From: an uncultured bacterium
GTDB taxonomy: Bacteria; Omnitrophota; Omnitrophia; Omnitrophales; JACQLI01
Assembly (NCBI GenBank): GCA_964565495.1
Contig: CAZMFE010000003.1
Span: forward strand, 1 to 25,962
Length of the DNA: 25,962 bases
Direction of reading: 5' to 3'
The notes under the pieces are model-generated. The model did no database searches and was not told the DNA's origin. It saw only the letters and a list, made by a program, of their open reading frames with translations. Positions 2,045 through 25,962 of the stretch are shown here, piece after piece (positions within the stretch are counted from its first letter, which is position 1; the number at the start of each line of letters is the position of its first letter). The position numbers and the translations under genes are program-made.

Positions 2045-2062
2045 TTGGGTAGCGGTTCCATC

Positions 2063-3967
2063 GTGGAAGGGCTCGAGCGCTTGTATGTCGGGCAGACGAT
2101 CGAGCGGGGCTCCTTGGAGACCCTCCTCCAGAAGCTCCGTTACAGGAGGAGAGACTTTGTCTCCGCGCCCGGTGAATACGCCGACCGCGGCGCGACCTTC
2201 GACATTTATCCCCTCACCTATCGCGCGCCGATCCGCTTAGGTTTCGAACTCGACACCATCGTTTCCATCCGCGATTTTTCTCCCCACGAAGGCAAAAGTC
2301 TCACGGGTTTTGAAGAAGTCTTCCTGGCCCCCCTTTCGGAACCTTTCGAGGCTCGGGTCAGCCTTGTTCGCAAGCGATTCGAGGAATTCGAACCGCTCAC
2401 CGAGGTGACGGACCTCGAAGCGGGAGACACTGTGGTTCACCTCCAATATGGGATCGCTCGTTACCTCGGGACGAAAAAGATTGAGATCCAGGGAGAGGCA
2501 AGACGTTGTATGGCCCTGGAGTTCGCGGATCGCGAAATCCTTTATCTCGAAATCACCGAGCCCCTGGAACGCTATATCGGAATCGAAGGGAAAAAGCCGA
2601 AACTGACGCGGCTTCATACCAAAGAATGGGAACGTGCAAAAACCAAGGCCCGGCTCGCCGTCGAAAATGTGGCCCGCGATCTTTTGTCTCTGGCGGCCCG
2701 AAGAGAACTTGGGTGTGGGTTTGCTTTTCCCAAAGACAGTCCCTGGCAGGGTGAGTTCGAGGAAGAGTTTCCTTTCGAAGAGACCGCGGATCAGCTCAAG
2801 GCGACGGAGGAAGTCAAACGGGACATGGAATCCCCTCGGCCAATGGATCGGCTCCTTTGCGGCGACGTGGGCTTTGGAAAGACGGAAGTGGCGATGCGCG
2901 CGGCCTTTAAAGCGGTGACGGCAGGGAAACAAGTCGCCTTTCTCGTTCCCACGACGGTTTTGGCCGAACAACACTGGCTTGTTTTCAAGGAGCGGGCGAA
3001 AAATTTCCCGCTCGCAATCGAAGTCCTCTCCCGTTTCCGTTCCAGGAAAGATCAGATTCAAGTCCTTAAAGGTCTTGAAGAGGGGAAAGTGGATGTCGTG
3101 ATCGGAACGCACCGGCTTCTTTCGGGGGATGTCCAATTTAAAGATTTGGGCCTCGTCGTGATCGATGAAGAGCAGCGTTTTGGCGTGGCCCACAAAGAGA
3201 AATTGAAAAAACTGCGGGAGGTGGTCGATCTCCTCACGTTAACCGCAACCCCCATTCCTCGAACGCTTTATCTTTCCCTCATGGGGGCGCGGGACATGTC
3301 CATGATCCATACCCCTCCCCGGACCCGCCTCCCCATCGAAACCCAAGTGATCGAATACGATGACCGAAAGATTGCCGATGCGATTCAGAGGGAGCTCGCG
3401 CGCGGGGGACAAATCTATTTCGTTCATAACCGGATCGCTTCGATTGAGCGGGTCCACGAGCATTTAAAAACGATTCTTCCGGACGTCCGATTCGGGATTG
3501 CCCATGGTCAGATGCCGTCACGGGCCCTTGAGAAGATCATGAAAGACTTTTTCGAGAAAAGAATCGATTGTTTGATTGCCACCAATATCATCGAATCGGG
3601 TCTCGATATTCCCAATGTCAACACGATCATTGTGAACCGGGCGGATCGATTTGGTCTGGCGGATCTTTACCAGCTGCGGGGACGCGTGGGCCGGTTTATC
3701 GGGAAGCGGCAGGCCTACGGCTATTTTATTGTTCCCCGGAATTGGGTCATGACGCTCGATGCCGAGAAACGCCTGGAAGCCATTGAGCGATTCACGGAAT
3801 TGGGGGCGGGATTCAAGATCGCTTTGAAGGATCTCGAAATTCGGGGCGCGGGGAATATCTTGGGTCACGAACAAAGCGGCTTCATTTATGCCGTGGGTTT
3901 TGACCTCTATTGCCGTATGCTCCGCCGCGCCATCGAAGAGATGAAAGGCAGATCGGCCAAGCGCTAA
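2063..3967 (+). CDS. mfd: Transcription-repair coupling factor, short form (~634 aa: D2-like + RID + SF2 translocase + TRG, no D7)
   Basis: PGEYADRGATFDIYP (UvrB-homology D2), GDTVVHLQYGIARYLG (CarD-like RID), GDVGFGKTEVAMRAA, DEEQRFG, TATPIPRTL, QLRGRVGR, DLEIRGAGNILGHEQSG. Start is uncertain (2045 TTG or 2063 GTG). Confidence 0.92.
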   Translation: MEGLERLYVGQTIERGSLETLLQKLRYRRRDFVSAPGEYADRGATFDIYPLTYRAPIRLGFELDTIVSIRDFSPHEGKSLTGFEEVFLAPLSEPFEARVSLVRKRFEEFEPLTEVTDLEAGDTVVHLQYGIARYLGTKKIEIQGEARRCMALEFADREILYLEITEPLERYIGIEGKKPKLTRLHTKEWERAKTKARLAVENVARDLLSLAARRELGCGFAFPKDSPWQGEFEEEFPFEETADQLKATEEVKRDMESPRPMDRLLCGDVGFGKTEVAMRAAFKAVTAGKQVAFLVPTTVLAEQHWLVFKERAKNFPLAIEVLSRFRSRKDQIQVLKGLEEGKVDVVIGTHRLLSGDVQFKDLGLVVIDEEQRFGVAHKEKLKKLREVVDLLTLTATPIPRTLYLSLMGARDMSMIHTPPRTRLPIETQVIEYDDRKIADAIQRELARGGQIYFVHNRIASIERVHEHLKTILPDVRFGIAHGQMPSRALEKIMKDFFEKRIDCLIATNIIESGLDIPNVNTIIVNRADRFGLADLYQLRGRVGRFIGKRQAYGYFIVPRNWVMTLDAEKRLEAIERFTELGAGFKIALKDLEIRGAGNILGHEQSGFIYAVGFDLYCRMLRRAIEEMKGRSAKR

Positions 3968-3985
3968 AGGGTAAAATCTCTTCTC

Positions 3986-4176
3986 GCCAAGACCCCCCTC
4001 GCCTGGGCCTCAGTCGGATTCTACGCGAGAAATCTACACGAGACGGCGTGGGAAGACCCTTCCGCCGTTCCCCCGCCCCAAAAGATTGGGCGGTGGCCGT
4101 CGGCTTTCCCACGCCGTCTCGTAAGATTTCTAATGACTCCGAATCCGATTCGGCCCTTGGCGAGGGGGTTCTTGGC
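3986..4176. repeat. ~190-bp imperfect foldback (long hairpin) element A
   Basis: Nested stems: 3986-4002/4159-4176, 4013-4020/4141-4148, 4027-4034/4124-4131, perfect 17 bp 4037-4053/4106-4122, 4072-4077/4088-4093. Confidence 0.9.
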
Positions 4177-4183
4177 TGTCAGG

Positions 4184-4356
4184 AGAAAATTTATTCCCCC
4201 GCCGCAATCAGGGCCGAAGGGGGTCCTACAACTCTTGCGATCTCGAGGTGGGGAAAACCCGGCCAGAAGTCTCCTTCTGTGGGACCGGGTGGGGCCCCGC
4301 CTCGGGATCGCTTAGAGTTGTCGCGAGAAGGCCCGCGGAGGGGGAATAAATTTTCT
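4184..4356. repeat. ~173-bp imperfect foldback (MITE-like) element B
   Basis: Terminal IR AGAAAATTTATTCCCC (4184-4199)/GGGGAATAAATTTTCT (4341-4356). Inner pairs ACAACTCT/AGAGTTGT, GCGATC/GATCGC, ACCCGG/CCGGGT. Confidence 0.88.
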
Positions 4357-4404
4357 TCTTCCAGGCGAGGGGATTCTGCCGTTGAACAGGAAAAGATTCT
4401 GCAA

Positions 4405-4433
4405 TTGAAATGAAGAAGGGCTTATGGTATAGG
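4405..4433 (+). promoter_or_regulatory. Sigma70-like promoter for surA
   Basis: TTGAAA (4405-4410), 17-bp spacer, TG-G-TATAGG (4428-4433). ATG lies only 11 nt downstream. Confidence 0.45.
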
Positions 4434-5518: not shown

Positions 5519-6574
5519 ATGCAAAAGCCAATTGTTGCCATCACGATGGGAGACCCGGGCGGGATCGGTCCGGAAGTCATCGCACGCACGATCCAAGATC
5601 CTAAAAAGTTCAAGGATGTTTTCCTCCTTTTAATCGGTACGGGGGTCGTCTTTGAATTTCTTGAAGACCGGCTCCCCCTCAGGCTTCCTTTAAACCCGAT
5701 CCCCACCCTCACCCGAGATTTTCTGAGAGATGACTCGGTCAACTTTCTCGATGTCACCGAAGAGGCCCAGTGGCTTTTAAAAAATCACTCTTTCCCCGGA
5801 ACCTCCTCGGATGCCTTGTTTGACATTGGCCGGGTTTCCGTGACCAATTCGGCGATGTCGCTGGCCGCCTTGAAGGCCGGAGCCTATCAAGCGGCGACTG
5901 GACTGGTGGATGCATTGGTGACCGGTCCGGTCAGTAAGGAGGCGATCCGTCTGATTGAACCTAAGTTTCACGGTCACACGGAATATTTGGCTCGCGTTGC
6001 GCGGGTGAAGAGATTTGCCATGATGTTCCTCAATGAAAACGGACGAGGATCTTCCGGGCTTCGAGTGACCCTTGTCACGATTCATGTCCCCTTGAAAAAG
6101 GTGAGCCGCCTCTTAACCGAGGAAACAATCCTTGAAAAGATCCAATTGACCGATGAGTTTTTGAAGACCCGCCTCGGGATCCCAAAACCGAAGATTGCAG
6201 TCTCGGCCCTCAATCCGCACGGTCGGGAAACCGGGGAGGAAGAGGGGAAAGTGATTGAGCCTGCGATTCAGAGGGCCCGGGAGGAAAAGATCAACGTTTT
6301 GGGCCCCATCTCCGGAGACCGCGTTTTTTACGATGCCTATCACGGAACCTATGATGCCGTCGTGGCGATGTATCACGATCAGGCCCTGGCCCCTTTCAAG
6401 CTGATCGCCTTTGACACCGGTGTCAACTTGACGCTCGGTCTGCCTTACCTCCGCACCTCTCCCGACCACGGAACCGCCTTCGACATTGCCTATCAAGGCA
6501 AGGCGGACCCCCGTTCCATGGAATCCGCGCTCCGGTGCGCCCTTAGATTGCTTCGTCCCCCGCACTTTCGTTAA
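5519..6574 (+). CDS. pdxA: 4-hydroxythreonine-4-phosphate dehydrogenase
   Basis: ITMGDPGGIGPEV, GHTEYLA, LVTIHVPL, LNPH, AMYHDQ, RTSPDHGTAFDIA. ATG 5519 preferred over GTG 5513. Confidence 0.95.
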   Translation: MQKPIVAITMGDPGGIGPEVIARTIQDPKKFKDVFLLLIGTGVVFEFLEDRLPLRLPLNPIPTLTRDFLRDDSVNFLDVTEEAQWLLKNHSFPGTSSDALFDIGRVSVTNSAMSLAALKAGAYQAATGLVDALVTGPVSKEAIRLIEPKFHGHTEYLARVARVKRFAMMFLNENGRGSSGLRVTLVTIHVPLKKVSRLLTEETILEKIQLTDEFLKTRLGIPKPKIAVSALNPHGRETGEEEGKVIEPAIQRAREEKINVLGPISGDRVFYDAYHGTYDAVVAMYHDQALAPFKLIAFDTGVNLTLGLPYLRTSPDHGTAFDIAYQGKADPRSMESALRCALRLLRPPHFR

Positions 6575-6597
6575 AAGTGCTGGGTCTTCGCAATGAC
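6545..6597. repeat. Half of a GTCATTGCG-family palindromic element overlapping the convergent pdxA/GT2 stops
   Basis: AGATTGCTTCGTC (6545-6557), hairpin GCACTTT/AAAGTGC, then TCGCAATGAC (6588-6597), the reverse complement of GTCATTGCGA seen at 10638 and 14520. Confidence 0.7.
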
Positions 6598-8250
6598 GGC
6601 GCTTGTTTTACGCTTTCCCTTCGGCGCCACGAAGAATTCCATGTATTTTCCAAGGGCGAGGCGGGTCTGGGCATCAAAGGCGGGAATCGCCCCGAAGATC
6701 GTGGCGATGACGGGAACCAGAAGCCATTGAAAGGCAAAGACGACCTTCTGATAGAGAGGAACTTTTTTCGGACGTTTGGGGAGGAGGAAAAAACTCAGGA
6801 CGATCGAGATGAAAAGACTCGCGATCGCAAGATTGGCAATCACCCCCGCGACGCGCGGGGCATTAAAGTAGGCCACTGAACCTGCGAAGTCGCGATTCGG
6901 CACCCACAGGGGGGCCCAGCTTAGAATCAGCATCATCGGGGTCCAAATCGCCCACGCCACATTCATCTCGAGGAGACGAAAGGTCCGTTTGACTTTGAGC
7001 CAAAGAGGAATTTTCGAATTGGCCAGAAGTCCTCGAACAAGAATCGGAAAATTTTCGACTCCCCAGGCCCACCTTCTTTTTTGGCGGTAGATCGATTGAC
7101 AGGTTTTCCAGAGGTTCTCTCCAATGGCCACATCCATGGAAACAGTGACATAAAGAGGTTCGACCCGATAGTCGCCGTCATAGACGAGGAAGGCCTTCCA
7201 GAAAATCGCTGAGTCATCGGAAACAAGGTCGAGGGGCCAGAAACCCACTTCCACGAGCGCTTGAAAGCTCATGCTGTGACTGGAGAAGGTGACGAGGTGT
7301 TCGGGATCGGTGACTTCAATCAACTGCAGAAAGGAAGAACCCGTTTCGAGGACCCGGGCAAAAGGCGGGGCCTCCCAGAGATTGTTGTGATAGACCGGAA
7401 TCGGCTGGAAACTCGTTCGGGTCCGTCTGGGATGAATGAGGTAATTGTAAGTGAGGCAGGAGAAGTACTCCGGACTCACGACCGTGTCGGAGTCAAAACA
7501 GGAGACCAGGAGATGATCCAAAGGAACGCGTCTCGCCTCAAAGAACTTTTTCGCCCAACGCGCCGCATGAGTCGAATTGGCCCCCTTCACAGGGGCTTCT
7601 CCCGCTCCTCCCTCGGGATGGACGCACACCTCAAAGTGAAGAAAGAATTTTGCGTATCGCTCCCTTAAAATCTCAGCCTGCCCGAGCGCCTCTTTTCCGG
7701 CCCGTTCTTCAACTCCCAGAACGACGACCATTCGATCTCGCGGGTAATTTACACGGGCCAAGGCCTCAAGACTGGGTCCCAAGACCGAAAGTCCTTCCTG
7801 ATAAAAGGGGATGATGACGAGGTGACAAATCTCTTTGGGATCTGGAAAATGGAGAGACTTCTGCCTCACCCGTTCCAGGGTTGCGAGGTGCCTGCGCTCT
7901 GAATAAAGCGCTTTCCAATTCGTTCGGAGTTCACGGAGGCGCCTGCGGCTTCTTGCGATGGCACTTTCCAGATTCCCAAGATCTTCAAGCCGGTTTCGCC
8001 ACTTGACCGACCGCTCCACCTCGAGGAGGCCATAAGAGAGGACGAGGAAAATCGTGAAGTAAATCAGTCGCAAAAGCCAATAGAGGTCAAAGAGGATAAT
8101 GGTTACGACCCCCGCCGCAGGGGCAAACACACAAAGAAGGGTGAGGGAGAGGAGAAGGCTCCAACTTAAGCTCGCGGGGACGATTTCGAGAAAGCGTTCA
8201 AGCCGCCAGGCCTTCGGATCCAGATGCTGGCGAGAATAAGAGAAGGTCAT
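6571..8250 (-). CDS. Membrane-bound family-2 glycosyltransferase (processive synthase-like)
   Basis: N-terminal TM helices, GT-A motifs KGANS, FDSD (DxD), SDD, QKRRW (QxxRW), C-terminal TM helices. ATGA overlap with the upstream PEGA gene. Confidence 0.85.
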   Translation of the reverse strand: MTFSYSRQHLDPKAWRLERFLEIVPASLSWSLLLSLTLLCVFAPAAGVVTIILFDLYWLLRLIYFTIFLVLSYGLLEVERSVKWRNRLEDLGNLESAIARSRRRLRELRTNWKALYSERRHLATLERVRQKSLHFPDPKEICHLVIIPFYQEGLSVLGPSLEALARVNYPRDRMVVVLGVEERAGKEALGQAEILRERYAKFFLHFEVCVHPEGGAGEAPVKGANSTHAARWAKKFFEARRVPLDHLLVSCFDSDTVVSPEYFSCLTYNYLIHPRRTRTSFQPIPVYHNNLWEAPPFARVLETGSSFLQLIEVTDPEHLVTFSSHSMSFQALVEVGFWPLDLVSDDSAIFWKAFLVYDGDYRVEPLYVTVSMDVAIGENLWKTCQSIYRQKRRWAWGVENFPILVRGLLANSKIPLWLKVKRTFRLLEMNVAWAIWTPMMLILSWAPLWVPNRDFAGSVAYFNAPRVAGVIANLAIASLFISIVLSFFLLPKRPKKVPLYQKVVFAFQWLLVPVIATIFGAIPAFDAQTRLALGKYMEFFVAPKGKRKTSAVIAKTQHF

Positions 8251-9677
8251 GGGAAAAGGCCCTCTCCTTCGAAGAGTTTAAACCGGGCGAGCCGGTTCCG
8301 ATCGGGATGGACGAAGTAGAGAAACCCTCGTTTTCGGTCAAGGAGGATCTGAGGGAACTCGCCTGAAATTTCAAAAAGCTCAATGGCCTCTCCCTCCCCT
8401 TCGAAATCAAGGACCTTCACGCGGCTGCCCTCCAGGAATAGAACATATCGGTCGCTGTAAAACCAGAGGAGGTTTCCCAGGGCCTCCTTTCCCTGGTAGA
8501 TTCTGCGGGGAGTCAGGCCCCTTTCGAAGAAAGTCCTTTCGCGTTCCCGTTCAAAATCCACTATCCAGAGCTCGGTCCCTTTCCGGTAAAGAACTCTCGG
8601 ATGAGAATTGGCCAGGGCCAGTTCATGGACTCCCTCGTCGAGAAAATAAGGGAGTTTATTGGAGAAGAGCTTTCCTTGATGGGAAAGGAAAAGGGCGAGG
8701 GCATCCTCTAAAGAAGAGAAGAGGGAGACGGGGGGGAGAAAGGAAATGGAGTATCGCTCTCCTTCATCCGGCCCAAAAATCAAACGAGCCTTCTCGGGTT
8801 CCTTCAAGAGGGTATTTCGAATTTTTCCCTGGGGGGTCACCTCTAAAAAACGCCGTCGTGCATCTAAGACAAAGAGGCGCGATCCATAGAGTGCGAAACT
8901 CCGGATCCTTTTCGGGAGATCGAGATAAAGGACTCCTTCATCCAGATCGAGATACCTCAAGGTCTCTCCTTTGAGATAGAAAAGGGAACTTTTGTGAGGG
9001 GCTCCCCATTGGAGTTGAGTGAAAGGTTCTTGCAAAAGATCCGTTAAGGAATTGACTTGGATCGGGTCGGAAAATCTGACCAACAAGGGGCGAAGACCCT
9101 CGCTCCTTCGAAGAGAAACAATCGCCCGATCGCCCCAAGGGTGAAGAAGAACTTTTTCTACGACCGCCTCTCGAGTGGGGCCGATGGGAAAGATCGGCCG
9201 GAATTCCTTTTTGTCAGGTTCGAAGAGGGTGAGTCCAGAAGCTTTTTCTCCTTCGAGCACAACGAGGCGTTTGCCTCCGGGATCGGACCAAATTTTCGTC
9301 ACCGAAAAGTTTCCCAAAATCTCAAGACGAGGCGAAAGGGGGAAAAGAAGAATATCCTCAAGACGAAGTGCCCGATCCGGTTTCGTCTCAATCCTTTTCT
9401 GCCACGGGTGATATCCCGGGAGGCCGATCCGAAGATCATAGAATCCAGGCCGCAGGTTACGTAGGACAAGGGGAGTCTTGTCGTTGGCAAGAACCCCATT
9501 GACCCAAACTCGAGCCTGGGAAGGTTCCGTCTCTACACTGACAAGGCCGGTCGGCAGCAGGGTTTGCTGGATCGGGCTGAAAATATACCCTAAAGCATAG
9601 AGAATCGTGAGAGGGGCGGCCACAAGGTAGATCCCTACAAATACGAACAAAATGATCCTCCGAAGTTTACCCACCAT
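8247..9677 (-). CDS. Membrane-anchored PEGA-domain protein with a beta-rich (possibly propeller) C-terminal region
   Basis: N-terminal TM helix, then VETEPSQARVWVNG…TPLVLRNLRPGFYDLRIGLPGYHPW (PEGA-like). SD GAAAGGTGA upstream on the minus strand. Confidence 0.75.
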   Translation of the reverse strand: MVGKLRRIILFVFVGIYLVAAPLTILYALGYIFSPIQQTLLPTGLVSVETEPSQARVWVNGVLANDKTPLVLRNLRPGFYDLRIGLPGYHPWQKRIETKPDRALRLEDILLFPLSPRLEILGNFSVTKIWSDPGGKRLVVLEGEKASGLTLFEPDKKEFRPIFPIGPTREAVVEKVLLHPWGDRAIVSLRRSEGLRPLLVRFSDPIQVNSLTDLLQEPFTQLQWGAPHKSSLFYLKGETLRYLDLDEGVLYLDLPKRIRSFALYGSRLFVLDARRRFLEVTPQGKIRNTLLKEPEKARLIFGPDEGERYSISFLPPVSLFSSLEDALALFLSHQGKLFSNKLPYFLDEGVHELALANSHPRVLYRKGTELWIVDFERERERTFFERGLTPRRIYQGKEALGNLLWFYSDRYVLFLEGSRVKVLDFEGEGEAIELFEISGEFPQILLDRKRGFLYFVHPDRNRLARFKLFEGEGLFP

Positions 9678-13866: not shown

Positions 13867-14876
13867 TGTTAACTCTTGGAATCGAAACCTCCTGTGACGA
13901 GACTTCTTGCGCTGTTTTAGAAAACGGCAATCGGATCCTTTCCAACGTCGTCTCTTCAAGCCTTGCAAAGCACAAGCCCTTCGGGGGTGTGGTTCCCGAA
14001 ATTGCTTCCCGGCATTGTCTGGAACAGATCGATTTTGTTTTCAAAACAGCGCTTCGTAAAACCAAGGTCGCCGAGAAAGATTTAGGCCTGATTGCGGTCA
14101 CCCAGGGACCCGGTCTGGTGGGTTCCCTCCTCGTCGGATTATCCTTTGCGAAGGCCCTGGCTTATCAACTCGGAATTCCTTTTGTCGGTGTGAATCACCT
14201 CGAGGGCCACTTGGCAGCTAACTTTATCGGTCGACCCCTCCCTCGGCATCCGTATATTGGACTCATCGTTTCTGGAGGGCACACGGAACTGACGGTTCAT
14301 CGCAACGGTTCCGTAAAAATTCTAGGGTCAACCGTCGACGACGCGGTGGGAGAGGCGTATGATAAGAGCGCGAAACTTTTAGGGCTGGGATATCCGGGGG
14401 GCCCCTTGATCGACCGGCTCGCTCAGAAGGGGAACCCCCAGGCGTTCCGTTTTACGAAACCGAGACAGGAAGGCCGGTTTGATTTTAGTTTCAGCGGGAT
14501 TAAGACTGCGGTACGAAACGTCATTGCGAGCCCCGTCTGCTCCGCTCCTCGCAATGACAGAATCTTAAATGATCTTTGTGCCAGTTTTCAGGAGACGGTG
14601 GTTGGCTGGCTCGTTGAGAAAACAATCGACGCCTGCCGGACCCAAAAGGTGAAAGAGGTTGTGGTTGGGGGAGGGGTGAGCGCGAATTCGAGGCTTCGCC
14701 GCCTCCTTGGCGAGGAAGCAAGACCCTACGGAATCCGGGTTTGGTTTCCTCCTCTGGCTCTGACGGTTGATAATGCCGCCATGATTGCCCGCCGGGGTTG
14801 GGAACTTTATAGAAATGGTAAACGTTCGGATTGGAAGATTTCAGCCTTACCGAATATGAGAATAGGAGAATCGTGA
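13866..14876 (+). CDS. tsaD: tRNA N6-threonylcarbamoyladenosine transferase
   Basis: LGIETSCDET, GGVVPEIASR, NHLEGH, VSGGHT, DDAVGEAYDK, DFSFSGIKTA, GGVSAN, DNAAMIA. Confidence 0.97.
   Translation: MLTLGIETSCDETSCAVLENGNRILSNVVSSSLAKHKPFGGVVPEIASRHCLEQIDFVFKTALRKTKVAEKDLGLIAVTQGPGLVGSLLVGLSFAKALAYQLGIPFVGVNHLEGHLAANFIGRPLPRHPYIGLIVSGGHTELTVHRNGSVKILGSTVDDAVGEAYDKSAKLLGLGYPGGPLIDRLAQKGNPQAFRFTKPRQEGRFDFSFSGIKTAVRNVIASPVCSAPRNDRILNDLCASFQETVVGWLVEKTIDACRTQKVKEVVVGGGVSANSRLRRLLGEEARPYGIRVWFPPLALTVDNAAMIARRGWELYRNGKRSDWKISALPNMRIGES
14520..14558. repeat. 39-bp GTCATTGCG-family palindrome in frame inside tsaD
   Basis: Perfect 11-bp IR GTCATTGCGAG/CTCGCAATGAC, encoding VIASPVCSAPRND. Confidence 0.85.
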
Positions 14877-15327: not shown

Positions 15328-16085
15328 TGAATCTCACGCAAAAAACGATTGAAAAGATCTTAAAACAGGTGGCCTCCCGGAGGCTTTCGAGTCGAAAGGC
15401 CTTCGAGCGGTTAAAGGCTCTCCCTTATGAGACTTTCTCTTTTGCCCGCATCGACCATCACCGGAGTCTGCGTAAGGGATTTCCCGAGGCGGTTTATGCG
15501 CCGGGAAAGAGTTTCGCGCAGCTTGAGAAGATCATTGGTTCGATCAAAAGGGCCGGTCAGAATCTCATCGTGACGAGGATGGAGGAGGGGGTGTACCGGA
15601 AATTGAAACGAAAATTTCCAACCCTTCGTTATTCAAAAGAGGCTCGGATCGGTTATCTTCGCAAAAGGGAATCCTTTTCAAAAAATGGCCGGATCGCGTC
15701 GATTGCAGTTTTAACCGGAGGAACAAGCGATCTGGCCGTGGCTGAAGAAGCGGCCCTCGCGTTGGAATTGATGGGACGCCAGGCGGTTCGAATTTACGAT
15801 TGCGGTGTCGCGGGGCTTCATCGACTTTTCGATCAACTCCCAAGATTGAAAGAGGTGAAGGCGATTATCTGTATAGCAGGAATGGAAGGAGCGTTGGCCA
15901 GTGTGGTGGCCGGTCTGACGGATAGGCCCGTGATTGCCGTTCCTACCAGTGTGGGTTACGGCGCGAGCTTCAAAGGGATTGCGCCGCTTCTTGCGATGCT
16001 TAATTCCTGCTCGCAGGGCGTGGCGGTCGTCAATATTGATAACGGTTTTGGCGCCGCTTGTTTCGCTGCCACCGTCACTTCATGA
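15327..16085 (+). CDS. larB: Nickel-pincer cofactor biosynthesis carboxylase LarB (AIR carboxylase-like)
   Basis: DHHRSLRKGFPE, GTSDLAVAEEA, GVAGLHRL, AGMEGAL, PTSVGYG, VVNIDNGFGAA. ATG 15327 overlaps the mgtC stop (TAATG). Confidence 0.92.
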   Translation: MNLTQKTIEKILKQVASRRLSSRKAFERLKALPYETFSFARIDHHRSLRKGFPEAVYAPGKSFAQLEKIIGSIKRAGQNLIVTRMEEGVYRKLKRKFPTLRYSKEARIGYLRKRESFSKNGRIASIAVLTGGTSDLAVAEEAALALELMGRQAVRIYDCGVAGLHRLFDQLPRLKEVKAIICIAGMEGALASVVAGLTDRPVIAVPTSVGYGASFKGIAPLLAMLNSCSQGVAVVNIDNGFGAACFAATVTS

Positions 16086-16534
16086 GCCCCGCCCCGTACC
16101 ACCGCGAAAAGCTGCTTCTCCTCGAGACCAATATCGACGATATGACCCCTCAAGGTTTCGAATTGGTTTACGAGAGGCTTTTTAAAGCGGGCGCTTTAGA
16201 TGTTTGGGTCCAGTCCATTCTCATGAAAAAAATGCGGCCCGCGTTTAAACTCTGTGTCTTGTTCAACCCGCCCCGCAAAGAGAAGTTGATGAAAGTCGTC
16301 TTCAAAGAGACGCCCACGCTTGGCGTCAGGTGTTTTGAAGTCGACCGTTTCTCCCTCCCTCGGAAACAGTTCCGTGTCAAAACCCGTTTTGGGCCCGTTC
16401 GAGTCAAGGTGGGATCTCTTGATTCCGAGCATCGAGTCGTGAATCCGGAATACGAAGACATCAAGCGGATTGCCCAAAGAAAAAACCTCCCCTTCCACAC
16501 GGCCCTACGCGAAGTTAAAAAAGACGTTTCGTGA
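16082..16534 (+). CDS. larC: LarC C-terminal domain only (LarC2-like)
   Basis: LETNIDDM, GALDVW, MKKMRP, ETPTLGVR, VKTRFGPVRVK, PEYEDIKRIA. 150 aa from ATG 16082, no N-terminal or His-rich half. Confidence 0.88.
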   Translation: MSPAPYHREKLLLLETNIDDMTPQGFELVYERLFKAGALDVWVQSILMKKMRPAFKLCVLFNPPRKEKLMKVVFKETPTLGVRCFEVDRFSLPRKQFRVKTRFGPVRVKVGSLDSEHRVVNPEYEDIKRIAQRKNLPFHTALREVKKDVS

Positions 16535-19754: not shown

Positions 19755-19761
19755 GTTACAT

Positions 19762-19832
19762 TGCCCGATGGTGAAATGGTATCACACCGCCCTTTGGAGG
19801 CGAGGTTCCTGGTTCGAATCCAGGTCGGGCAG
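19762..19832 (+). tRNA. tRNA-Gln (anticodon UUG), CCA not encoded
   Basis: Acceptor TGCCCGA/TCGGGCA (U1-A72), D stem GTGA/TCAC, anticodon loop CTTTGGA, T arm CCTGG-TTCGAAT-CCAGG, discriminator G. One C-A mismatch in the anticodon stem. Confidence 0.96.
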
Positions 19833-19937
19833 TCTGTCCTCTACACCTGCATCTTTCATTTGCCAGGAAGTATAGAGACTCGGGTGAAAAGCTTTGTGGC
19901 GATTAACCGCTGATGGTAATATTGGAAGGGTGAATCG

Positions 19938-20267
19938 ATGAAGCTAGAGGAGCAAGAGGAAAAGGCGCTGAAACGTTTTAAAGAGATTCTAACTGAGCGA
20001 TTTGGTCAAGAGATTGTCAGTGTCCATTTGTTTGGTTCCAAAGCCCGGGGCGACGTTCATCAGGAATCCGATATTGACATCCTAGTTGTGACCCAACAAG
20101 ACGATTGGAGGCTTAAGGAGCAAATCGGGAAAGTGGCTACGCAAGTCCTGCTGGATTATGGAATCTATTTGTCAGTCAAAGTGCTTGGCAGATCCTTCCG
20201 TGAGAAATTAGTCAACGTTGACAGCCCCTTCATTCGCAATGTCCTGCGCGAAGGAATCCTTTTGTGA
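19938..20267 (+). CDS. Minimal nucleotidyltransferase (MNT, putative antitoxin)
   Basis: LFGSKARGD…SDIDILVV pol-beta-like motif, 109 aa, GTGA overlap with the HEPN gene. Confidence 0.9.
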   Translation: MKLEEQEEKALKRFKEILTERFGQEIVSVHLFGSKARGDVHQESDIDILVVTQQDDWRLKEQIGKVATQVLLDYGIYLSVKVLGRSFREKLVNVDSPFIRNVLREGILL

Positions 20268-20667
20268 CAGAAGAGACTCTTGTTTACCTTCAGGAGGAAA
20301 TGAAAAAAGCTGCGCGTTCTCTGAAAGCCGCCCAGAAGCTGCTTGGGGAAGAGCTTACAGACGACGCCGTTTCGAGAGCTTACTACGCTGTTTTCCATAG
20401 CGCTCGCGCTGCCTTGAAGACAAAGGGGATCGAAACCAAGACCCACCAGGGGCTCATTACCCGATTTGCTTTACATCTCTGGTGAAACCGGGTTTGTTGG
20501 AGACGGACTATGGAGATATCCTGCGTCAGGAAAAGGAAGATCGAGAAACAGGGGATTACGAACCTTTTATCAGCTTTAGTTTGGAGGAAGCCGAAAAGCG
20601 GGTAAAGGATGCAGAGCGCTTCGTCACACGGATACAGAAATTTTTTAAAGATTCAGGCTTTAAATAA
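20264..20667 (+). pseudogene. HEPN-domain gene of an MNT-HEPN module, split by a frameshift at ~20476-20482
   Basis: 5' part AVSRAYYAVFHSARAAL…KTHQGLI, 3' part VKPG…RETGDY in another frame. Deleting 2 bp from CATCTCTGGTG gives a single 133-aa protein. Confidence 0.85.
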
Positions 20668-20702
20668 AATATCCTCCCAGCGGAACCGCGTGTTCCGTTG
20701 GC

Positions 20703-20732
20703 CCCGGATCCCTGTGGATCCGGGATTTTTTT
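20703..20732 (+). terminator. Intrinsic terminator after MNT-HEPN
   Basis: CCCGGATCC-CTGT-GGATCCGGG followed by A and T7. Confidence 0.8.
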
Positions 20733-20758
20733 ATTCAGGGAAGTTGATAGTCTATAAA

Positions 20759-20846
20759 ATTGGCAGTCAGTTGCCACTAGGTTGCCAGTAAAATGCCAGT
20801 AGGTTCGTAGCAAGTTCGCAGTAGAGTCGCAGTAACGTCGCAGTAG
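20759..20846. repeat. Eight degenerate 11-bp tandem direct repeats
   Basis: ATTGGCAGTCA GTTGCCACTAG GTTGCCAGTAA AATGCCAGTAG GTTCGTAGCAA GTTCGCAGTAG AGTCGCAGTAA CGTCGCAGTAG. Confidence 0.85.
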
Positions 20847-21278
20847 AGTGTAGGGCCTTTCCCCTCTACACTTGCGCCAGGTTCCATACAAAACTTCATC
20901 GCGCATCGCGTTCCAGAGCTTTTCTGATAAAATTCAGGTTTCATAGGCCCGATTGGAATCGTTTAACACTCGAATCTGCCATTCCCCCTTAGCCACACGG
21001 TAAAGGGAAATCGAGATTTCTATCTCAAACGTAGGTCGTCTGGGAGTGGCGGTCGGGTCGGGCAGAGTATAAAAACGTTTCATTTTCTCAAGCCGAGAAG
21101 CGATTCCCGCACGATACTAACCCCTTTTGTATACCCACCTTAAAAGAGGCTATAAATTGCTATACCGATCAATTTGTAATAAAAGAGATCTCGGGTTATC
21201 TTTCAAGTGTGTAAAGAAACGCTGATTTATTGACGTTGCTTCAAGGGTAAGAAGTGAAAGAGTTAAAAAACAAATCCG

Positions 21279-24200
21279 ATGCGGAAAAAGAGTAGGCGTA
21301 GAGTTCTCGGGGTGTGCACGGGAATTTTATTTTTTTTCTTCCCGCTCCAGGAAACTTACCCCCTTCCTTCCGTTGAAGAAGTAGTGGAGGGGACCGCCAC
21401 GGTTGAAAAAGTCGACAAGACCACTCTCAATGTTACCGCTTCCGGCGATTCGATCATTCATTGGAACTCCTTTGACATCGCCGCTAATGAGACGGTGAAT
21501 TTCTTCCTTCCTTCCCTGGACAATTTTTCACTCAACCGGGTTCAAAGCGGAAGCACCACCCAAGTCCTCGGCACGCTCACCGCGAATGGCAATTTGATTC
21601 TGGTGAATACCGACGGATTTTATTTCGGTTCGACCGCCTCGGTGAATGTCGGCGGACTCATTGCCTCGACCCATGACATTACCAACGCGAATTTTCTTTC
21701 CGGTCATTATCTCTTTGCCGGAACGGAGACCAACCATCCCACCTCCACTTCGATCCTCCATGAGGGGAGTATCCTCACTCGAGAGGGTGGGATGGCGGTT
21801 TTGGTGGCCGATGCGATCGAGAATCGCGGCACGATCGAGGCGCCCCTCGGAACCGTGGCCTTGGCGGCCGGGGAAGTGGTCACAGTCGCAATTTCTCCCA
21901 ATGGCCTCATCACGATTGGAATCGATCAGCCCACCGCTCATACGATCTTGGATAAAGAGGGTCAGCCTATCACCGAACAAGTCAAAAATTCAGGGGAGCT
22001 CACGGCGAATAGCGGCAAAGTCTCCCTCCAGGCCCAGGCCGTGGATCAAATCTTTCAAAGCGCCATTAATCTCGCGGGAACCGTGCGGGCCGATACGGTC
22101 CAAGTGGGCAAGGATGGAGTCATTGAAATTGTGGCTTCTGGACCGATCCAGACCGATGCCACCCTCAGCGCCGACAAGGGAGAAATAGTTCTTGATACTT
22201 CTAAAGATCTTACCGTCACAGGCCCTGCCACCACTTATGGCAACACCACTTTTCAGGCGGATCGGGATATTCATGTGGAGAGCGCTGTCACCACGCATTC
22301 GGGGAACCTCTCCTTCAAAGCCGATTTTGACTTGGATGGGGTGGGGGCCTTCCTTCAGGCGGCTGGAACCACGCTTACCACCACAGGCTTTGGAGATATC
22401 TTGATTTCTGCCTCCGGGGAGAGCACCCTCGCCAATATTGTCTCAGCGGGGAGCCTCTATCTGAATCAAGCCGGAGCCCTAGTCACTTATACCCAGCATC
22501 CCAATGCCATCTTGACCCTCGCCGGTTCCCTCACGATTGGGGCGGGGGTGAGCCTCAAGGCCGCCAACGCGGTTTATGAGGTAGCCAAGGACTGGATCAA
22601 TCTAGGGGACTTTATTCCTGGGTTATCCCTCGTGAAGCTCGTGGGGCCGCTGGATGCCCAAGTAAAAGGCTCAAACAAGTTCAATGATTTTATGATCATT
22701 GGACCTGGGAAAACGGTTATTTTTGACTCAGGCACCACTCAAGATATTGTCGGCACTCTTACCTTTCAGGGCGGATTCGGGAAGCTTCTTACCCTCAGAT
22801 CCTCCATTCCCGCCACCCCTTGGAAGATCAATCCCACAGGTGTGAGAGATATCTCTTATGTGGACCTCAAGGACTCCACAAATATCAATATCCATGGGCC
22901 CCCGATTGTAGTCTTTTATAGCAAAAACTCCCTCGCGAACTCGGGCTGGGATTTCTCCGAAGCTGGTCCCGTGTGGACCGGTCTCGGAAATTCGTCTTTT
23001 TGGTCTGATCCTCTCAATTGGAACGGCGGATTCGTGCCCGGCCCAGGCGACAGGGTCACATTTACCTCCCTTTCTTCCTCCAATTCTTTAATTGATCCTC
23101 TTTTTGAAGGGACTATTTTAAGCCTTATCCTTGACTCTTCTTACTCCGGAACCGTCTCCCTCAGCCGGAACCTCACTGTGTCAAAAGACGTCACTCTGCA
23201 GGGAGGCACCTTGTCGCTTAACGCTTATAGCTTAACGCTTGGCTGGAACTGGACCCTCAATGGCGGCATCTTCGAAGCCGGCACCTCCACCGTGGTCTTC
23301 AATGATGCCTCCCGAGTCTCTACCATTTCGGGAAGCAATACCTTCTATAACTTCAGCTCTCTGACCCCCTCTAAATATATCCTTTTTGAAGCGGGAGAGA
23401 CTCAGACGATCCGGGGAACCTTCAAGATTGAAGGAGCCTACAGCCGGCACATCCGGATGCTTTCTACTGAGACCGGAAGCCATTGGTATATCGATCCCCA
23501 AGGCCCCCGGGACATTAGCTACGCCTGGGTAGAGGATGCTTACAACATCAATCCGATTGAAATCATCATGATCGAATCCACCAATCAGAGGAATGGCGTG
23601 GGCTGGGACCCCACAGCCACCTGGACAAATGGCGGCCTGGACGGAGTCTGGTCCAATTGTTCCAACTGGTCCGGACTCGGAGGTTGTCCTGCTACGCCTG
23701 GTTCGGGAGACGATGTGGTCTTCGATGCCACCAGTGACTCGAACTCAAGTGTTGATGCCGCCTTCACCATCACCACCCTTTCCTTGAATTCCGGTTACAA
23801 CAGCACGGTCACCTTGAACGCCGCTCTGAGTGTCACTAGCGGCGCCGCCGATGTCACGATCAATAGCGGCACTCTTAACGCCAATAATCGGACCCTCACG
23901 ATAAGTGATGATTTCATCGTGGGAGCGAGCGGCACCTTCTCCGAAGGGACAAGCACGGTCGTCTTTCTTGACAATCTTGGCTCTACCATCAATGTCAACG
24001 TGAGCGAGACCTTTAACAACCTCACGATCAATATAACACACAGCGCCGATCTCACCATCACCAGTGGTGACACCCTCATTGTCGCAGGCACTCTCACCCT
24101 GACCAATGGAAACGTCCTCACCGGCACGATCGATGCCCGCGGGAATATCACCCAAGCCTCCACCTTTGACGGCGGCTCGGCCATTATTGACTTTGGAGAC

Positions 24201-25962
24201 AACGCCGTGGCTCAGACCTACACCTCCAACGGCGGCAAAGGTCCCTGGATTCGCTTTGATAACGCCTCCGATGCCTCCGATTCGGTCGTCCTCAATGCCG
24301 CTACCACCTTCTTTGGACTTGACATCACTGCAGACTTTTCCGGCACCGTTCCCTTCACTTATAACGGCTTCAATCTCACCTTAAGCGGCAGCAACACCGA
24401 AATTGGAGGTTTCACCCAGGCCGCAGGGACCTTCAATGCCCCGACGACCCTTACCATCGGCACCGTCGGCAACACGGACAGGGCCAACTTCACCATCTCG
24501 GGCGGCACCTTCAATGAGGGGACCACGACGATCTTTGGCGCATCCGCCCCGGCGATCAATGTCAACGTGAGCGAGACTTTCACCGATCTTCAATTTAATT
24601 TACCGAACGGCAGTAACGGCACTATTACCAGCGGAGACACCCTGATTGTGACCGGCACCCTCACCCTGACCGATGGAACCATCCTCACCGGCACCATGGA
24701 AGCGCGGGGGAATGTCACAGTCGCCTCGACCTACGACACTGGCAGCACCGCTCCTCTTCTTTTCAGCGGAAGCGCAGCCAGCGGACTCGCCACCCAAACC
24801 TTCGATCTCACAGGAGCCACAGGGGCTTTCAACGCCGACATCACCATCACCAAGGACGAAGGACAAGTGAACCTCCTCTCCGCCCTCGTGATGGATGCGA
24901 CGAACCAGGATTTGACACTTTCGAATGCGACGAGCATTTTGTATTTGAATGGAAGCAACCTTACCGTCAACGGAACAGGGAGCACATTTTCCAATAACGG
25001 GGTCCTTCAGTTACAAGGTAGTGAGACCGCGACCCTTCCGAGCGGCGCCAACGACACCAATTCCGGCACTTGGACATACATCGGCGATGGGGACGGCGTC
25101 CAGGATACGTTTGATTTGACAGATTTCGGTACAAGCGATTATTACAACCTTACGATCAACACCACCGACACCAATGACATCATCCGATTAACCTCAGGAC
25201 TCGCCATCGATGGGACTCTCATCGTGACCTCCGGCATTCTCTCTTTAAACGGTAGCAGCATTTCAGACATCTCCGGAGGAGACACTGCCGCCCGCGGAAA
25301 TATCGCCGGGACGGTCCGCTTGCAGGGTGGGGAGACCGTCTTCTGGACCACCAACGACACGGATTCCGGGACCTATGAATACGTCGGCGACGGCGCCGGC
25401 GGCACCGTGACGTTTACCCTCCTTTCCTTCACCGGAACCGATTATAACAATCTTACGATCAACTCAACGGCCGGAGATGAAAACTTTCAGGTGGGAGCTG
25501 CGCTTGTTGTAGCAGGCGATTTAACCACAACGAGTGGAACGATCACCGGAACGAATGATCTTACCGTCCAAGGAGGCGATGTCACAGGCAATGGCGACAT
25601 TAATCTCACCGGTGGCACCTTCACTCTCGACGGCACCGGAAACTTCGGCGGGAATACGGCCTGGGATTTCTACAACCTCACCTTTGGCGATGGCGCAGGA
25701 TCGGCCACCACCACCAAGACGGGCACCGGCTCCATCACCGTCGCCAATGATCTCACGATTGCGGCCAGTCAGAACCTGGATATCGGAGATGATACCTGGA
25801 CCGTGACCGGGGACCTGACCATGACAGGAAATATCTCTGCCGGCACCGGCAACCTGACCGTCAACGGAGGCGCTGTCACCGGCAACGGAGACATCACCCT
25901 CACCGCAGGCACCTTCACTCTCGACGGCACCGGAAACTTCGGCGGGAATACGGCCTGGGATT
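21279..25962 (+). CDS. Giant secreted filamentous-haemagglutinin/TpsA-like protein, 3'-truncated by the window (at least 1561 aa)
   Basis: Signal peptide MRKKSRRRVLGVCTGILFFFFPLQETYP, haemagglutination-activity/TPS domain (WNSFDI…ETVNF…LNRV…GTLTANG…LVNTDGFYFG…VGGLIAST), Thr/Gly/Asn-rich beta-helix-like repeats. I read no stop in this frame to the window end, which explains its absence from the ORF track. Confidence 0.92.
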   Translation, partial: MRKKSRRRVLGVCTGILFFFFPLQETYPLPSVEEVVEGTATVEKVDKTTLNVTASGDSIIHWNSFDIAANETVNFFLPSLDNFSLNRVQSGSTTQVLGTLTANGNLILVNTDGFYFGSTASVNVGGLIASTHDITNANFLSGHYLFAGTETNHPTSTSILHEGSILTREGGMAVLVADAIENRGTIEAPLGTVALAAGEVVTVAISPNGLITIGIDQPTAHTILDKEGQPITEQVKNSGELTANSGKVSLQAQAVDQIFQSAINLAGTVRADTVQVGKDGVIEIVASGPIQTDATLSADKGEIVLDTSKDLTVTGPATTYGNTTFQADRDIHVESAVTTHSGNLSFKADFDLDGVGAFLQAAGTTLTTTGFGDILISASGESTLANIVSAGSLYLNQAGALVTYTQHPNAILTLAGSLTIGAGVSLKAANAVYEVAKDWINLGDFIPGLSLVKLVGPLDAQVKGSNKFNDFMIIGPGKTVIFDSGTTQDIVGTLTFQGGFGKLLTLRSSIPATPWKINPTGVRDISYVDLKDSTNINIHGPPIVVFYSKNSLANSGWDFSEAGPVWTGLGNSSFWSDPLNWNGGFVPGPGDRVTFTSLSSSNSLIDPLFEGTILSLILDSSYSGTVSLSRNLTVSKDVTLQGGTLSLNAYSLTLGWNWTLNGGIFEAGTSTVVFNDASRVSTISGSNTFYNFSSLTPSKYILFEAGETQTIRGTFKIEGAYSRHIRMLSTETGSHWYIDPQGPRDISYAWVEDAYNINPIEIIMIESTNQRNGVGWDPTATWTNGGLDGVWSNCSNWSGLGGCPATPGSGDDVVFDATSDSNSSVDAAFTITTLSLNSGYNSTVTLNAALSVTSGAADVTINSGTLNANNRTLTISDDFIVGASGTFSEGTSTVVFLDNLGSTINVNVSETFNNLTINITHSADLTITSGDTLIVAGTLTLTNGNVLTGTIDARGNITQASTFDGGSAIIDFGDNAVAQTYTSNGGKGPWIRFDNASDASDSVVLNAATTFFGLDITADFSGTVPFTYNGFNLTLSGSNTEIGGFTQAAGTFNAPTTLTIGTVGNTDRANFTISGGTFNEGTTTIFGASAPAINVNVSETFTDLQFNLPNGSNGTITSGDTLIVTGTLTLTDGTILTGTMEARGNVTVASTYDTGSTAPLLFSGSAASGLATQTFDLTGATGAFNADITITKDEGQVNLLSALVMDATNQDLTLSNATSILYLNGSNLTVNGTGSTFSNNGVLQLQGSETATLPSGANDTNSGTWTYIGDGDGVQDTFDLTDFGTSDYYNLTINTTDTNDIIRLTSGLAIDGTLIVTSGILSLNGSSISDISGGDTAARGNIAGTVRLQGGETVFWTTNDTDSGTYEYVGDGAGGTVTFTLLSFTGTDYNNLTINSTAGDENFQVGAALVVAGDLTTTSGTITGTNDLTVQGGDVTGNGDINLTGGTFTLDGTGNFGGNTAWDFYNLTFGDGAGSATTTKTGTGSITVANDLTIAASQNLDIGDDTWTVTGDLTMTGNISAGTGNLTVNGGAVTGNGDITLTAGTFTLDGTGNFGGNTAWD
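25614..25962 (+). repeat. Exact 55-bp direct repeat inside the adhesin
   Basis: 25614-25668 is identical to 25908-25962 (offset 294 bp = 98 codons), encoding GTFTLDGTGNFGGNTAWD. Confidence 0.95.

Follow-up and report, generated by a model that had tools for sequence, protein, structure and literature searches.

The window analysed here, meaning the whole stretch of 25,962 nucleotides (nt), ends inside a long open reading frame (ORF) on the plus strand. Translation of 21279-25962 gave 1,561 codons without a stop, reading past the window end. The ATG at 21279 was fixed as the start because an in-frame TAA lies 12 nt upstream. The frame is coding and not a chance opening, since homologues match it at ~41% identity and cover up to 97% of its 1,561 residues. 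The first-pass annotation had described a gene missed by ORF calling. The frame is indeed absent from the ORF list, and the cause is mechanical rather than biological, because the lister skips ORFs that reach past an end. The encoded protein, called TpsA here, very likely serves an Omnitrophota bacterium as the passenger of a two-partner (type Vb) secretion system and forms a surface or attachment fibre. The features of the frame are as follows.

21279-25962, plus strand: TpsA-family exoprotein gene, incomplete at the 3' end, with 1,561 codons of its 5' part visible (open frame, upstream stop, homologue coverage up to 97%)
21279-21365, plus strand: signal-peptide-like N-terminus, residues 1-29 (sequence reading, hydropathy, alignment of relatives)
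21366-22178, plus strand: two-partner secretion (TPS) domain, residues ~30-300 (PF05860, TIGR01901, matches to EtpA, HMW1 and HxuA in the PDB, invariant residues)
22059-23978, plus strand: predicted beta-solenoid stalk, residues 261-900 (AlphaFold2, Foldseek list)
22662-22922, plus strand: module A copy 1, residues 462-548, a hallmark of the family (self-comparison, jackhmmer over relatives)
23325-23567, plus strand: module A copy 2, residues 683-763 (self-comparison, jackhmmer over relatives)
23952-25088, plus strand: two diverged repeats of ~189 residues, residues 892-1270 (self-comparison, low-confidence all-beta model)
25008-25613, plus strand: two diverged repeats of ~101 residues, residues 1244-1445 (self-comparison, model confidence score of 60-82 over most of the stretch)
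25614-25962, plus strand: start of a perfect 294-nt (98-codon) tandem array, with the window stopping 55 nt into copy 2 (self-match, contig depth)

In the N-terminus of TpsA (MRKKSRRRVLGVCTGILFFFFPL), six positively charged residues precede a hydrophobic core of ~15 residues, and the mean Kyte-Doolittle hydropathy of residues 9-20 was 2.5. This region aligns with the signal regions of the relatives, with L29 and P30 invariant. Read from sequence and hydropathy, residues 1-29 are signal-peptide-like and fit an N-terminal Sec signal peptide. No ESPR-type extended signal (PF13018) was found in TpsA with Pfam, and no transmembrane-like segment follows the signal in the 1,561 residues (maximum 19-residue hydropathy, 1.57). 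Residues 53-277 matched the TPS domain PF05860 at 91.2 bits against a cutoff of 33.5, and the NCBIfam model TIGR01901 was matched at 58.9 bits against a cutoff of 29.1. In a sequence search of the PDB, residues 5-300 matched the solved TPS domains of EtpA (E = 5e-36), HMW1, and HxuA. As for the TPS motifs, LNRV is present, and the position of NPNG reads N110-T-D-G113; N110 and G113 are invariant or nearly so in the clade, and the Pro position varies among relatives. No other Pfam or NCBIfam family scored above threshold in the 1,561 residues. A TrkA_C match at residues 911-938 (28 residues) reached 24.7 bits, below its cutoff of 27, and was dismissed as spurious. The domain scan of the visible protein thus returned the TPS domain only, and no toxin, peptidase, or other known family; the earlier description of a TPS domain followed by structural repeats, with no toxin or enzyme domain yet, holds for the visible part.

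Self-comparison of the protein revealed nested, diverged repeats: two of ~220 residues (458-900), two of 189 residues (892-1270), two of 101 residues (1244-1445), and at least two of 98 residues (1406 to 1561 and beyond). Thr, Gly, Ser, and Asn are abundant in the visible protein. Its structure was predicted by segment, as had been proposed at first pass. Residues 261-900, which hold the two copies of module A together with two W-x-G...W-S-x-x-x-N-W segments, were confidently modelled by AlphaFold2 as a beta-solenoid from an alignment of 14 homologues, with a mean predicted local distance difference test (pLDDT) score of 91.6, a predicted template modelling (pTM) score of 0.78, and only short periodic beta strands. 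Module A belongs to this solenoid and matched nothing in Pfam at E ≤ 10. A Foldseek search of the PDB with this model found no significant neighbour; the entries listed, none of them significant, were all right-handed beta-helix proteins, either surface proteins or lyases (HxuA, Ag43, tapirin, SepA, EtpA, FHA, and tailspikes). Residues 881-1561 were modelled as all-beta with a pLDDT of 64.6, the terminal repeats being modelled best, and this model was too uncertain for a fold search.

The end of the window is an assembly break and not the end of the gene. The last 55 nt repeat 25614-25668 letter for letter, at an offset of 294 nt, and the 294-nt unit is in frame, spans 98 codons, and contains no stop. 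The TpsA sequence is present in two hot-spring metagenome runs, X1 and X2. In both runs, the last ~320 bases form a separate contig of 324 nt (294 + 30), which is the signature of a collapsed perfect tandem repeat. The depth of this contig was 20.8x in X1, compared with 5.5x for the flank, and 8.85x in X2, where one contig joins 25907 back to 25614. Repeat depth implies ~3.8 copies of the unit, and TpsA therefore reaches at least ~1,820 residues, corresponding to a gene of at least ~5.5 kb, of which 4.7 kb are visible. At least ~260 further codons are thus required, so the frame is neither fragmented nor closed shortly after the window. A contig with a diverged copy in X2 suggests further repeats past the array. 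Extension of the contig was attempted: none of the public genome or metagenome contigs searched contained the exact 50-mer taken from the window end, and the Logan contigs of X1 and X2 likewise break at the repeat, so that no longer public contig was obtained by exact match. These results indicate that the frame is cut off at the window end by a break of the contig within the perfect 294-nt tandem repeat. The visible part of TpsA ends in a recently amplified array of 98-residue repeats. The unit is specific to the window gene, with no counterpart in the relatives searched. TpsA therefore documents gene length evolving through very recent repeat expansion, and the same repeat makes assemblies truncate the gene.

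The named matches of the GatB protein encoded in the window all belonged to Omnitrophota/Omnitrophica, the best named match showing 75% identity and unnamed ones up to 83%; the window was assigned to Omnitrophota on this basis. The closest relatives of TpsA (40-63% identity) are likewise proteins from Omnitrophota metagenome-assembled genomes (MAGs), named by NCBI [quoted passage not shown]. TpsA is accordingly an ordinary member of the known TpsA family, already recognised by automatic annotation in related MAGs. Proteins such as P0001 (in GCA_016192545.1), P0003, P0004, and P0005 have the same architecture of TPS domain, stalk, two copies of module A, and repeats, with 41-48% identity over up to 97% of the visible TpsA; in the TPS region, identity is as high as 63% (L025). 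The combination of TPS domain, stalk, and two N-proximal module A copies in TpsA is shared with P0001-P0007, P0018, P0021, and P0023.

The relatives also give an indication of what lies beyond the break. Those with a visible 3' end are 1,283-2,659 residues long (3.9-8.0 kb), and L009 would encode ~2,990 residues if its frameshift were read through. Two independent loci, L010/L039 and L027 (on a 2.17-Mb contig), stay open for at least 3,740 residues (>11.2 kb) and leave the available DNA inside tandem repeats of ~100 residues. The word "giant", which had been applied to the window gene at first pass, therefore does not suit the relatives with a visible 3' end, and a larger size is possible, given the two that are open past 3,740 residues. 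The Pfam lists of complete relatives contained the TPS domain only, occasionally with FG-GAP, PATR, or MBG. At least 10 complete relatives carry a final module A 20-390 residues before the C-terminus. In P0001, P0002, P0009, P0015, P0019, and L009, this final module A is followed by an acidic/Gly/Ser-rich linker and a conserved tail of ~65 residues (...NPWxxFGT...DFKTxVxVYEGxVxV...). TpsA has no terminal module A by residue 1,561, which is consistent with a substantial C-terminal part being missing; together with the contig break, this bears out the earlier expectation that the C-terminal end lies beyond the window. The conserved tail was also considered as a FecR-like half-domain, and this was rejected, as it had no Pfam match and an hhalign probability of 0.2% against the neighbouring FecR proteins. 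A profile of the tail found nothing in a database of 5.8 billion proteins or among PDB sequences, the domain being too short for a database of that size.

Several further observations were made at the loci of relatives. A second TPS gene lies nearby in L005 (13114-16215), and L040 (342-20629) contains a tandem pair of TPS ORFs, one of 3,100 residues and the other of at least 3,663. The TpsA protein P0012 stops abruptly, and the DUF4096 transposase fragment that comes next (L002, 15652-16041) suggests truncation by an insertion sequence. In L009, a frame change at 14296-14307 splits the TpsA gene into ORFs of 1,432 and 1,551 residues; the gene has either decayed to a pseudogene or, being rich in repeats, been misassembled.

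The gene neighbours of the relatives were then compared. A TpsB gene (POTRA_2 + ShlB) is adjacent in ~15 of ~25 distinct close loci. It usually lies immediately upstream, including in L025, which holds the closest TPS match, and lies downstream in L013 and L022. The adjoining TpsB genes are good evidence that this clade uses two-partner secretion. Unlike most of these loci, the window has no TpsB gene immediately upstream of TpsA, and the corresponding gene is probably located downstream or elsewhere. Among the eight loci with a visible TpsA 3' end, a gene for a FecR-domain protein (154-163 residues) is adjacent in six, and one for a CHASE2 sensor joined to a cyclase domain (GGDEF or class III) in four. 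These FecR/CHASE2 sets occur in two different gene orders, often with overlapping stop and start codons. Four-gene sets of TpsB, TpsA, FecR, and CHASE2 cyclase were found in L001, L021, and L022/L035, and partial sets in L005, L009, and L013. CHASE2 also adjoins more distant TPS genes (L031, L064, L067, L073, and L097), and L020/L030 and L033 contain TpsB and TpsA without FecR or CHASE2. By analogy, the operon link to FecR and CHASE2 cyclases in the relatives suggests a coupling to cyclic-nucleotide signalling. The pairing of FecR with CHASE2 is a known sensing module, described in a biofilm-regulating operon of Burkholderia (PMC5192318). No publication linking it to two-partner secretion was found in the literature searched, and absence there is not proof of novelty.

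In comparison with known systems, TpsA resembles EtpA of enterotoxigenic Escherichia coli (ETEC), HMW1 and HxuA of Haemophilus, and the filamentous haemagglutinin (FHA/FhaB) of Bordetella in having an N-terminal signal and a TPS domain. A long, repeat-built, right-handed beta-helix shaft is also shared with these proteins, on the strength of the model obtained here for TpsA. As in classical TpsA systems, the relatives of the window gene have an adjacent POTRA_2 + ShlB transporter gene. The designation as an FHA/TpsA-like exoprotein is therefore well founded. In contrast to EtpA, HMW1, HxuA, and FHA, TpsA shows no similarity to them beyond the TPS domain and lacks Fil_haemagg repeats, and no FHA-1/FHA-2 (Fil_haemagg) family was found with Pfam at E ≤ 0.1 in the 1,561 residues. 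TpsA further differs from classical members in reading NTDG instead of NPNG, in building its shaft from the family-specific module A and W...W-S-x-x-x-N-W elements, for which Pfam has no model, and in lacking an upstream TpsB gene in the window. The FecR/CHASE2 link of the relatives was not found described for classical TpsA loci in the literature searched.

By analogy with FHA, HMW1, EtpA, and HxuA, TpsA would be exported to the periplasm by Sec, and its TPS domain would be recognised there by the POTRA domains of an Omp85-type TpsB transporter. The protein would then be threaded through the TpsB barrel and fold progressively (vectorially) outside the cell into a rigid fibre, of which the visible part would measure ~35 nm, as estimated from ~20 residues and 0.48 nm per coil. 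If the complete relatives are a guide, the missing part would hold additional repeats together with a last module A, the acidic/Gly/Ser-rich linker, and the small conserved C-terminal domain of ~65 residues, and genes for a FecR-domain protein and a CHASE2 nucleotide cyclase may follow downstream. An attachment or surface fibre (adhesin), with its length variable by repeat expansion, is the most likely role suggested by the sequence, because there is no catalytic or toxin domain in the visible part or in the complete close relatives. Several points weigh against this interpretation. The adhesin role is read from architecture only. The C-terminus is missing and may hold an effector domain, and one member of the clade, P0024, carries a TcdB_toxin_midN/FG-GAP region. 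The cleavage region aligns with the "A-LP" of the relatives and has a Pro at position -1, so that processing is predicted only; the Pro of NPNG is replaced in TpsA (N-T-D-G). In addition, phmmer and Pfam searches found no TpsB, FecR, or CHASE2 gene in window positions 1-21278, and residues 881-1561 were modelled with only moderate confidence, at the pLDDT given above.

Other explanations were weighed against the secreted fibre. Within a second-messenger circuit, the fibre could serve as the sensory or the output arm, co-expressed with the FecR protein and the CHASE2 cyclase (GGDEF or class III); its conserved C-terminal tail would stay in the periplasm and signal to this cyclase that the fibre is engaged. 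This is suggested by the full and partial gene sets with their overlapping stop and start codons, by the CHASE2 genes beside more distant TPS genes, and by the control of biofilm by FecR and CHASE2 in Burkholderia (PMC5192318). However, neither gene is visible in the window, L020/L030 and L033 have TpsB and TpsA without them, and the tail of the relatives shows no detectable similarity to FecR (hhalign probability, 0.2%). The proposal is built on gene context, which does not give the direction of signalling, and we consider it unlikely for the window gene. A more specific version, which we regard as doubtful, places the window gene in an Omnitrophota clade in which TpsA, TpsB, a periplasmic FecR protein, and a CHASE2 cyclase form one operon, and in which the fibre would act through its tail as a mechanical or contact input, or as a regulated output, of a cyclic-nucleotide circuit. 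If this were true, the orphan CHASE2 sensor domain would gain its first candidate partner, and host-dependent nanobacteria would gain a way to sense contact with another cell. An attack function had also been proposed at first pass, in the form of a contact-dependent effector or attack filament. CdiA, like TpsA as read here, combines a TPS domain with a long beta-helical fibre exported by TpsB, and a CdiA-like or toxin-tipped TpsA would deliver a C-terminal toxin from beyond the window into neighbour or prey cells, with an immunity gene downstream. The C-terminus does lie outside the visible sequence, P0024 has FG-GAP and TcdB_toxin_midN domains, and Omnitrophota have been proposed to be predators or parasites (PMC10066038). 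Nevertheless, the 1,561 residues contain neither FHA-1/FHA-2 repeats nor a pretoxin domain. The 12 complete close relatives checked (P0001, P0002, P0009, P0013-16, P0019, P0020, P0022, L009, and L033) show no match to a toxin family, a small conserved domain forms their C-terminus, and complete relatives lack toxin/immunity modules. Their downstream genes are FecR/CHASE2 or housekeeping genes rather than small immunity-like ORFs. The attack function is thus not supported: with no CdiA-type repeats and with complete relatives that end without a toxin or enzyme family, we judge a toxin tip to be improbable.

It had further been suggested that the gene is connected with the very large genes reported in Omnitrophota, in which case TpsA would be the 5' end of one of the giant genes (>20 kb) proposed to serve prey attachment and cell-wall degradation. 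The Omnitrophota origin of the window, the two relatives whose TpsA ORFs are open beyond 3,740 residues, and the giant ORFs that close relatives of the window genome carry elsewhere in the syntenic region are compatible with this. Giant ORFs of the Archaeovorin and Dockerin types, including the 39,678-residue protein of V. archaeovorus, come from the same phylum and are also large, repetitive, extracellular, and proposed to serve attachment. However, the published giant genes have another architecture: they exceed 20 kb and have C39/S8 peptidase N-termini, many transmembrane helices, and SecA-like helicase domains, with a locus resembling a type II secretion system (T2SS) upstream and PilZ genes downstream. 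TpsA instead has a TPS domain and no transmembrane segments; Pfam detected no C39/S8 peptidase or SecA-like domain in its visible part, and housekeeping genes, with no T2SS-like locus, lie upstream in the window. Haemagglutinin is unmentioned in the giant-gene literature searched, as are "two-partner" and "TPS" where these were also looked for. Since every close relative with a visible 3' end falls within the size range given above (L009 on read-through slightly beyond it), and none of the giant-gene domains and no T2SS-like locus is present in the visible sequence, this connection is not supported and we regard it as highly improbable. An assembly artefact or a decaying pseudogene, rather than a functional gene, was considered as well, in view of the low coverage (~5x), the frameshift in the adjoining HEPN gene, and the TpsA of L009 that is split into two ORFs. 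Against this, 1,561 codons are free of stops, contigs of two independent runs tile the region at 99%+ identity without indels, and the invariant residues of the family are kept along the length of the protein in the alignment with relatives. A non-functional sequence is therefore barely credible here. These comparisons leave TpsA as the probable secreted passenger of a type Vb system. Taken alone, the window gene changes little. Together with its relatives, it indicates that classical fibres of type Vb secretion exist in Omnitrophota, whose cells are mostly tiny and may depend on a host; these fibres are candidates for attachment and distinct from the giant genes. The most interesting by-product is the recurrent TpsB-TpsA-FecR-CHASE2 set in the relatives, for which no description was found. 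If it is real, the input of CHASE2 sensors becomes experimentally approachable; whether it applies to the window gene depends on the sequence beyond the window.

The remaining 21 kb of the window, upstream of TpsA, consist of housekeeping genes (rplQ, aminotransferase, mfd, surA, pdxA, GT2, PEGA, ksgA, gatCAB, tsaD, mgtC, larB/C, ZIP, hisG, ispE, and spoVG). After spoVG come a tRNA-Gln gene, an MNT/HEPN pair, and a 610-nt leader, followed by TpsA. The features of this segment are as follows.

19761-19834, plus strand: tRNA-Gln(ttg), end of synteny with close relatives (ARAGORN; Rfam, 60.5 bits)
19938-20668, plus strand: MNT nucleotidyltransferase gene (19938-20267) and frameshifted HEPN gene (20264-20668) (PF01909, 47 bits; HEPN PF05168, 66 bits on read-through)
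20703-20849, plus strand: part of the 610-nt leader region, with a terminator-like hairpin (20703-20733) followed by eight tandem units of 11 nt (20760-20849)

L018 and L019, whose GatB proteins are ~80% identical to that of the window, share with it the order ksgA-gatCAB-tsaD-mgtC-larB-larC-ZIP-hisG-ispE-spoVG-tRNA-Gln. They continue past tRNA-Gln with a DegT aminotransferase, and the window diverges exactly at this point, with both the MNT/HEPN pair and the TpsA gene in the non-syntenic segment. The gene had been placed next to a tRNA-linked island, an idea borne out in part. Synteny does break at tRNA-Gln, but TpsA lies inside the variable segment and not beside it, and the segment shows neither an integrase nor a shift in GC content (0.48-0.56 throughout). 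A direct repeat of 13 nt (12/13 identical) was noted at 19838, 4 nt after tRNA-Gln, and at 20863-20875, past the MNT/HEPN cassette, and an exact 10-nt copy of the 3' acceptor arm of tRNA-Gln occurs at 21056-21065. A small insertion may have left these short repeats as att-like scars, but their statistical support is weak and no integrase is present.

From its sequence, the MNT/HEPN pair between tRNA-Gln and TpsA appears to be of the toxin-antitoxin type. The HEPN gene is split by a 1-nt frameshift near 20478-20486, and read-through restores the full HEPN domain; the frameshift reflects either a decaying toxin-antitoxin pair or an error at ~8x coverage. The 11-nt units (consensus, ~kTyGCAGTArr) are spaced one helical turn apart just past the HEPN terminator, ~430 nt upstream of the TpsA start. 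Two occurrences of GCAGTA-N5-GCAGTA were counted, compared with an expectation of 0.01, and the pattern is absent from the 22 related loci compared. The array is possibly a protein-binding one. Rfam found no riboswitch or known RNA in the 610-nt leader, the z-score of its fold was only -2.05, and it contained no match to a sigma-70-like promoter.

A second variable spot in the syntenic region lies upstream of ksgA, where the true large genes of the lineage sit. L018 (1-7420) and L019 (1-6941) have very large ORFs directly upstream of ksgA, of at least 2,567 and of 4,344 residues, respectively. At the matching place (6571-9677), the window has a GT2 glycosyltransferase gene and a PEGA-domain gene on the opposite strand. 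Among the housekeeping genes, the larC ORF (16058-16534) encodes only 158 residues, compared with 277-307 residues in the two relatives, and the mfd ORF (2045-4413) encodes 640 residues and is followed by an overlapping ORF of 167 residues without a Pfam match. These short larC and mfd ORFs may be truncations or frameshifts.

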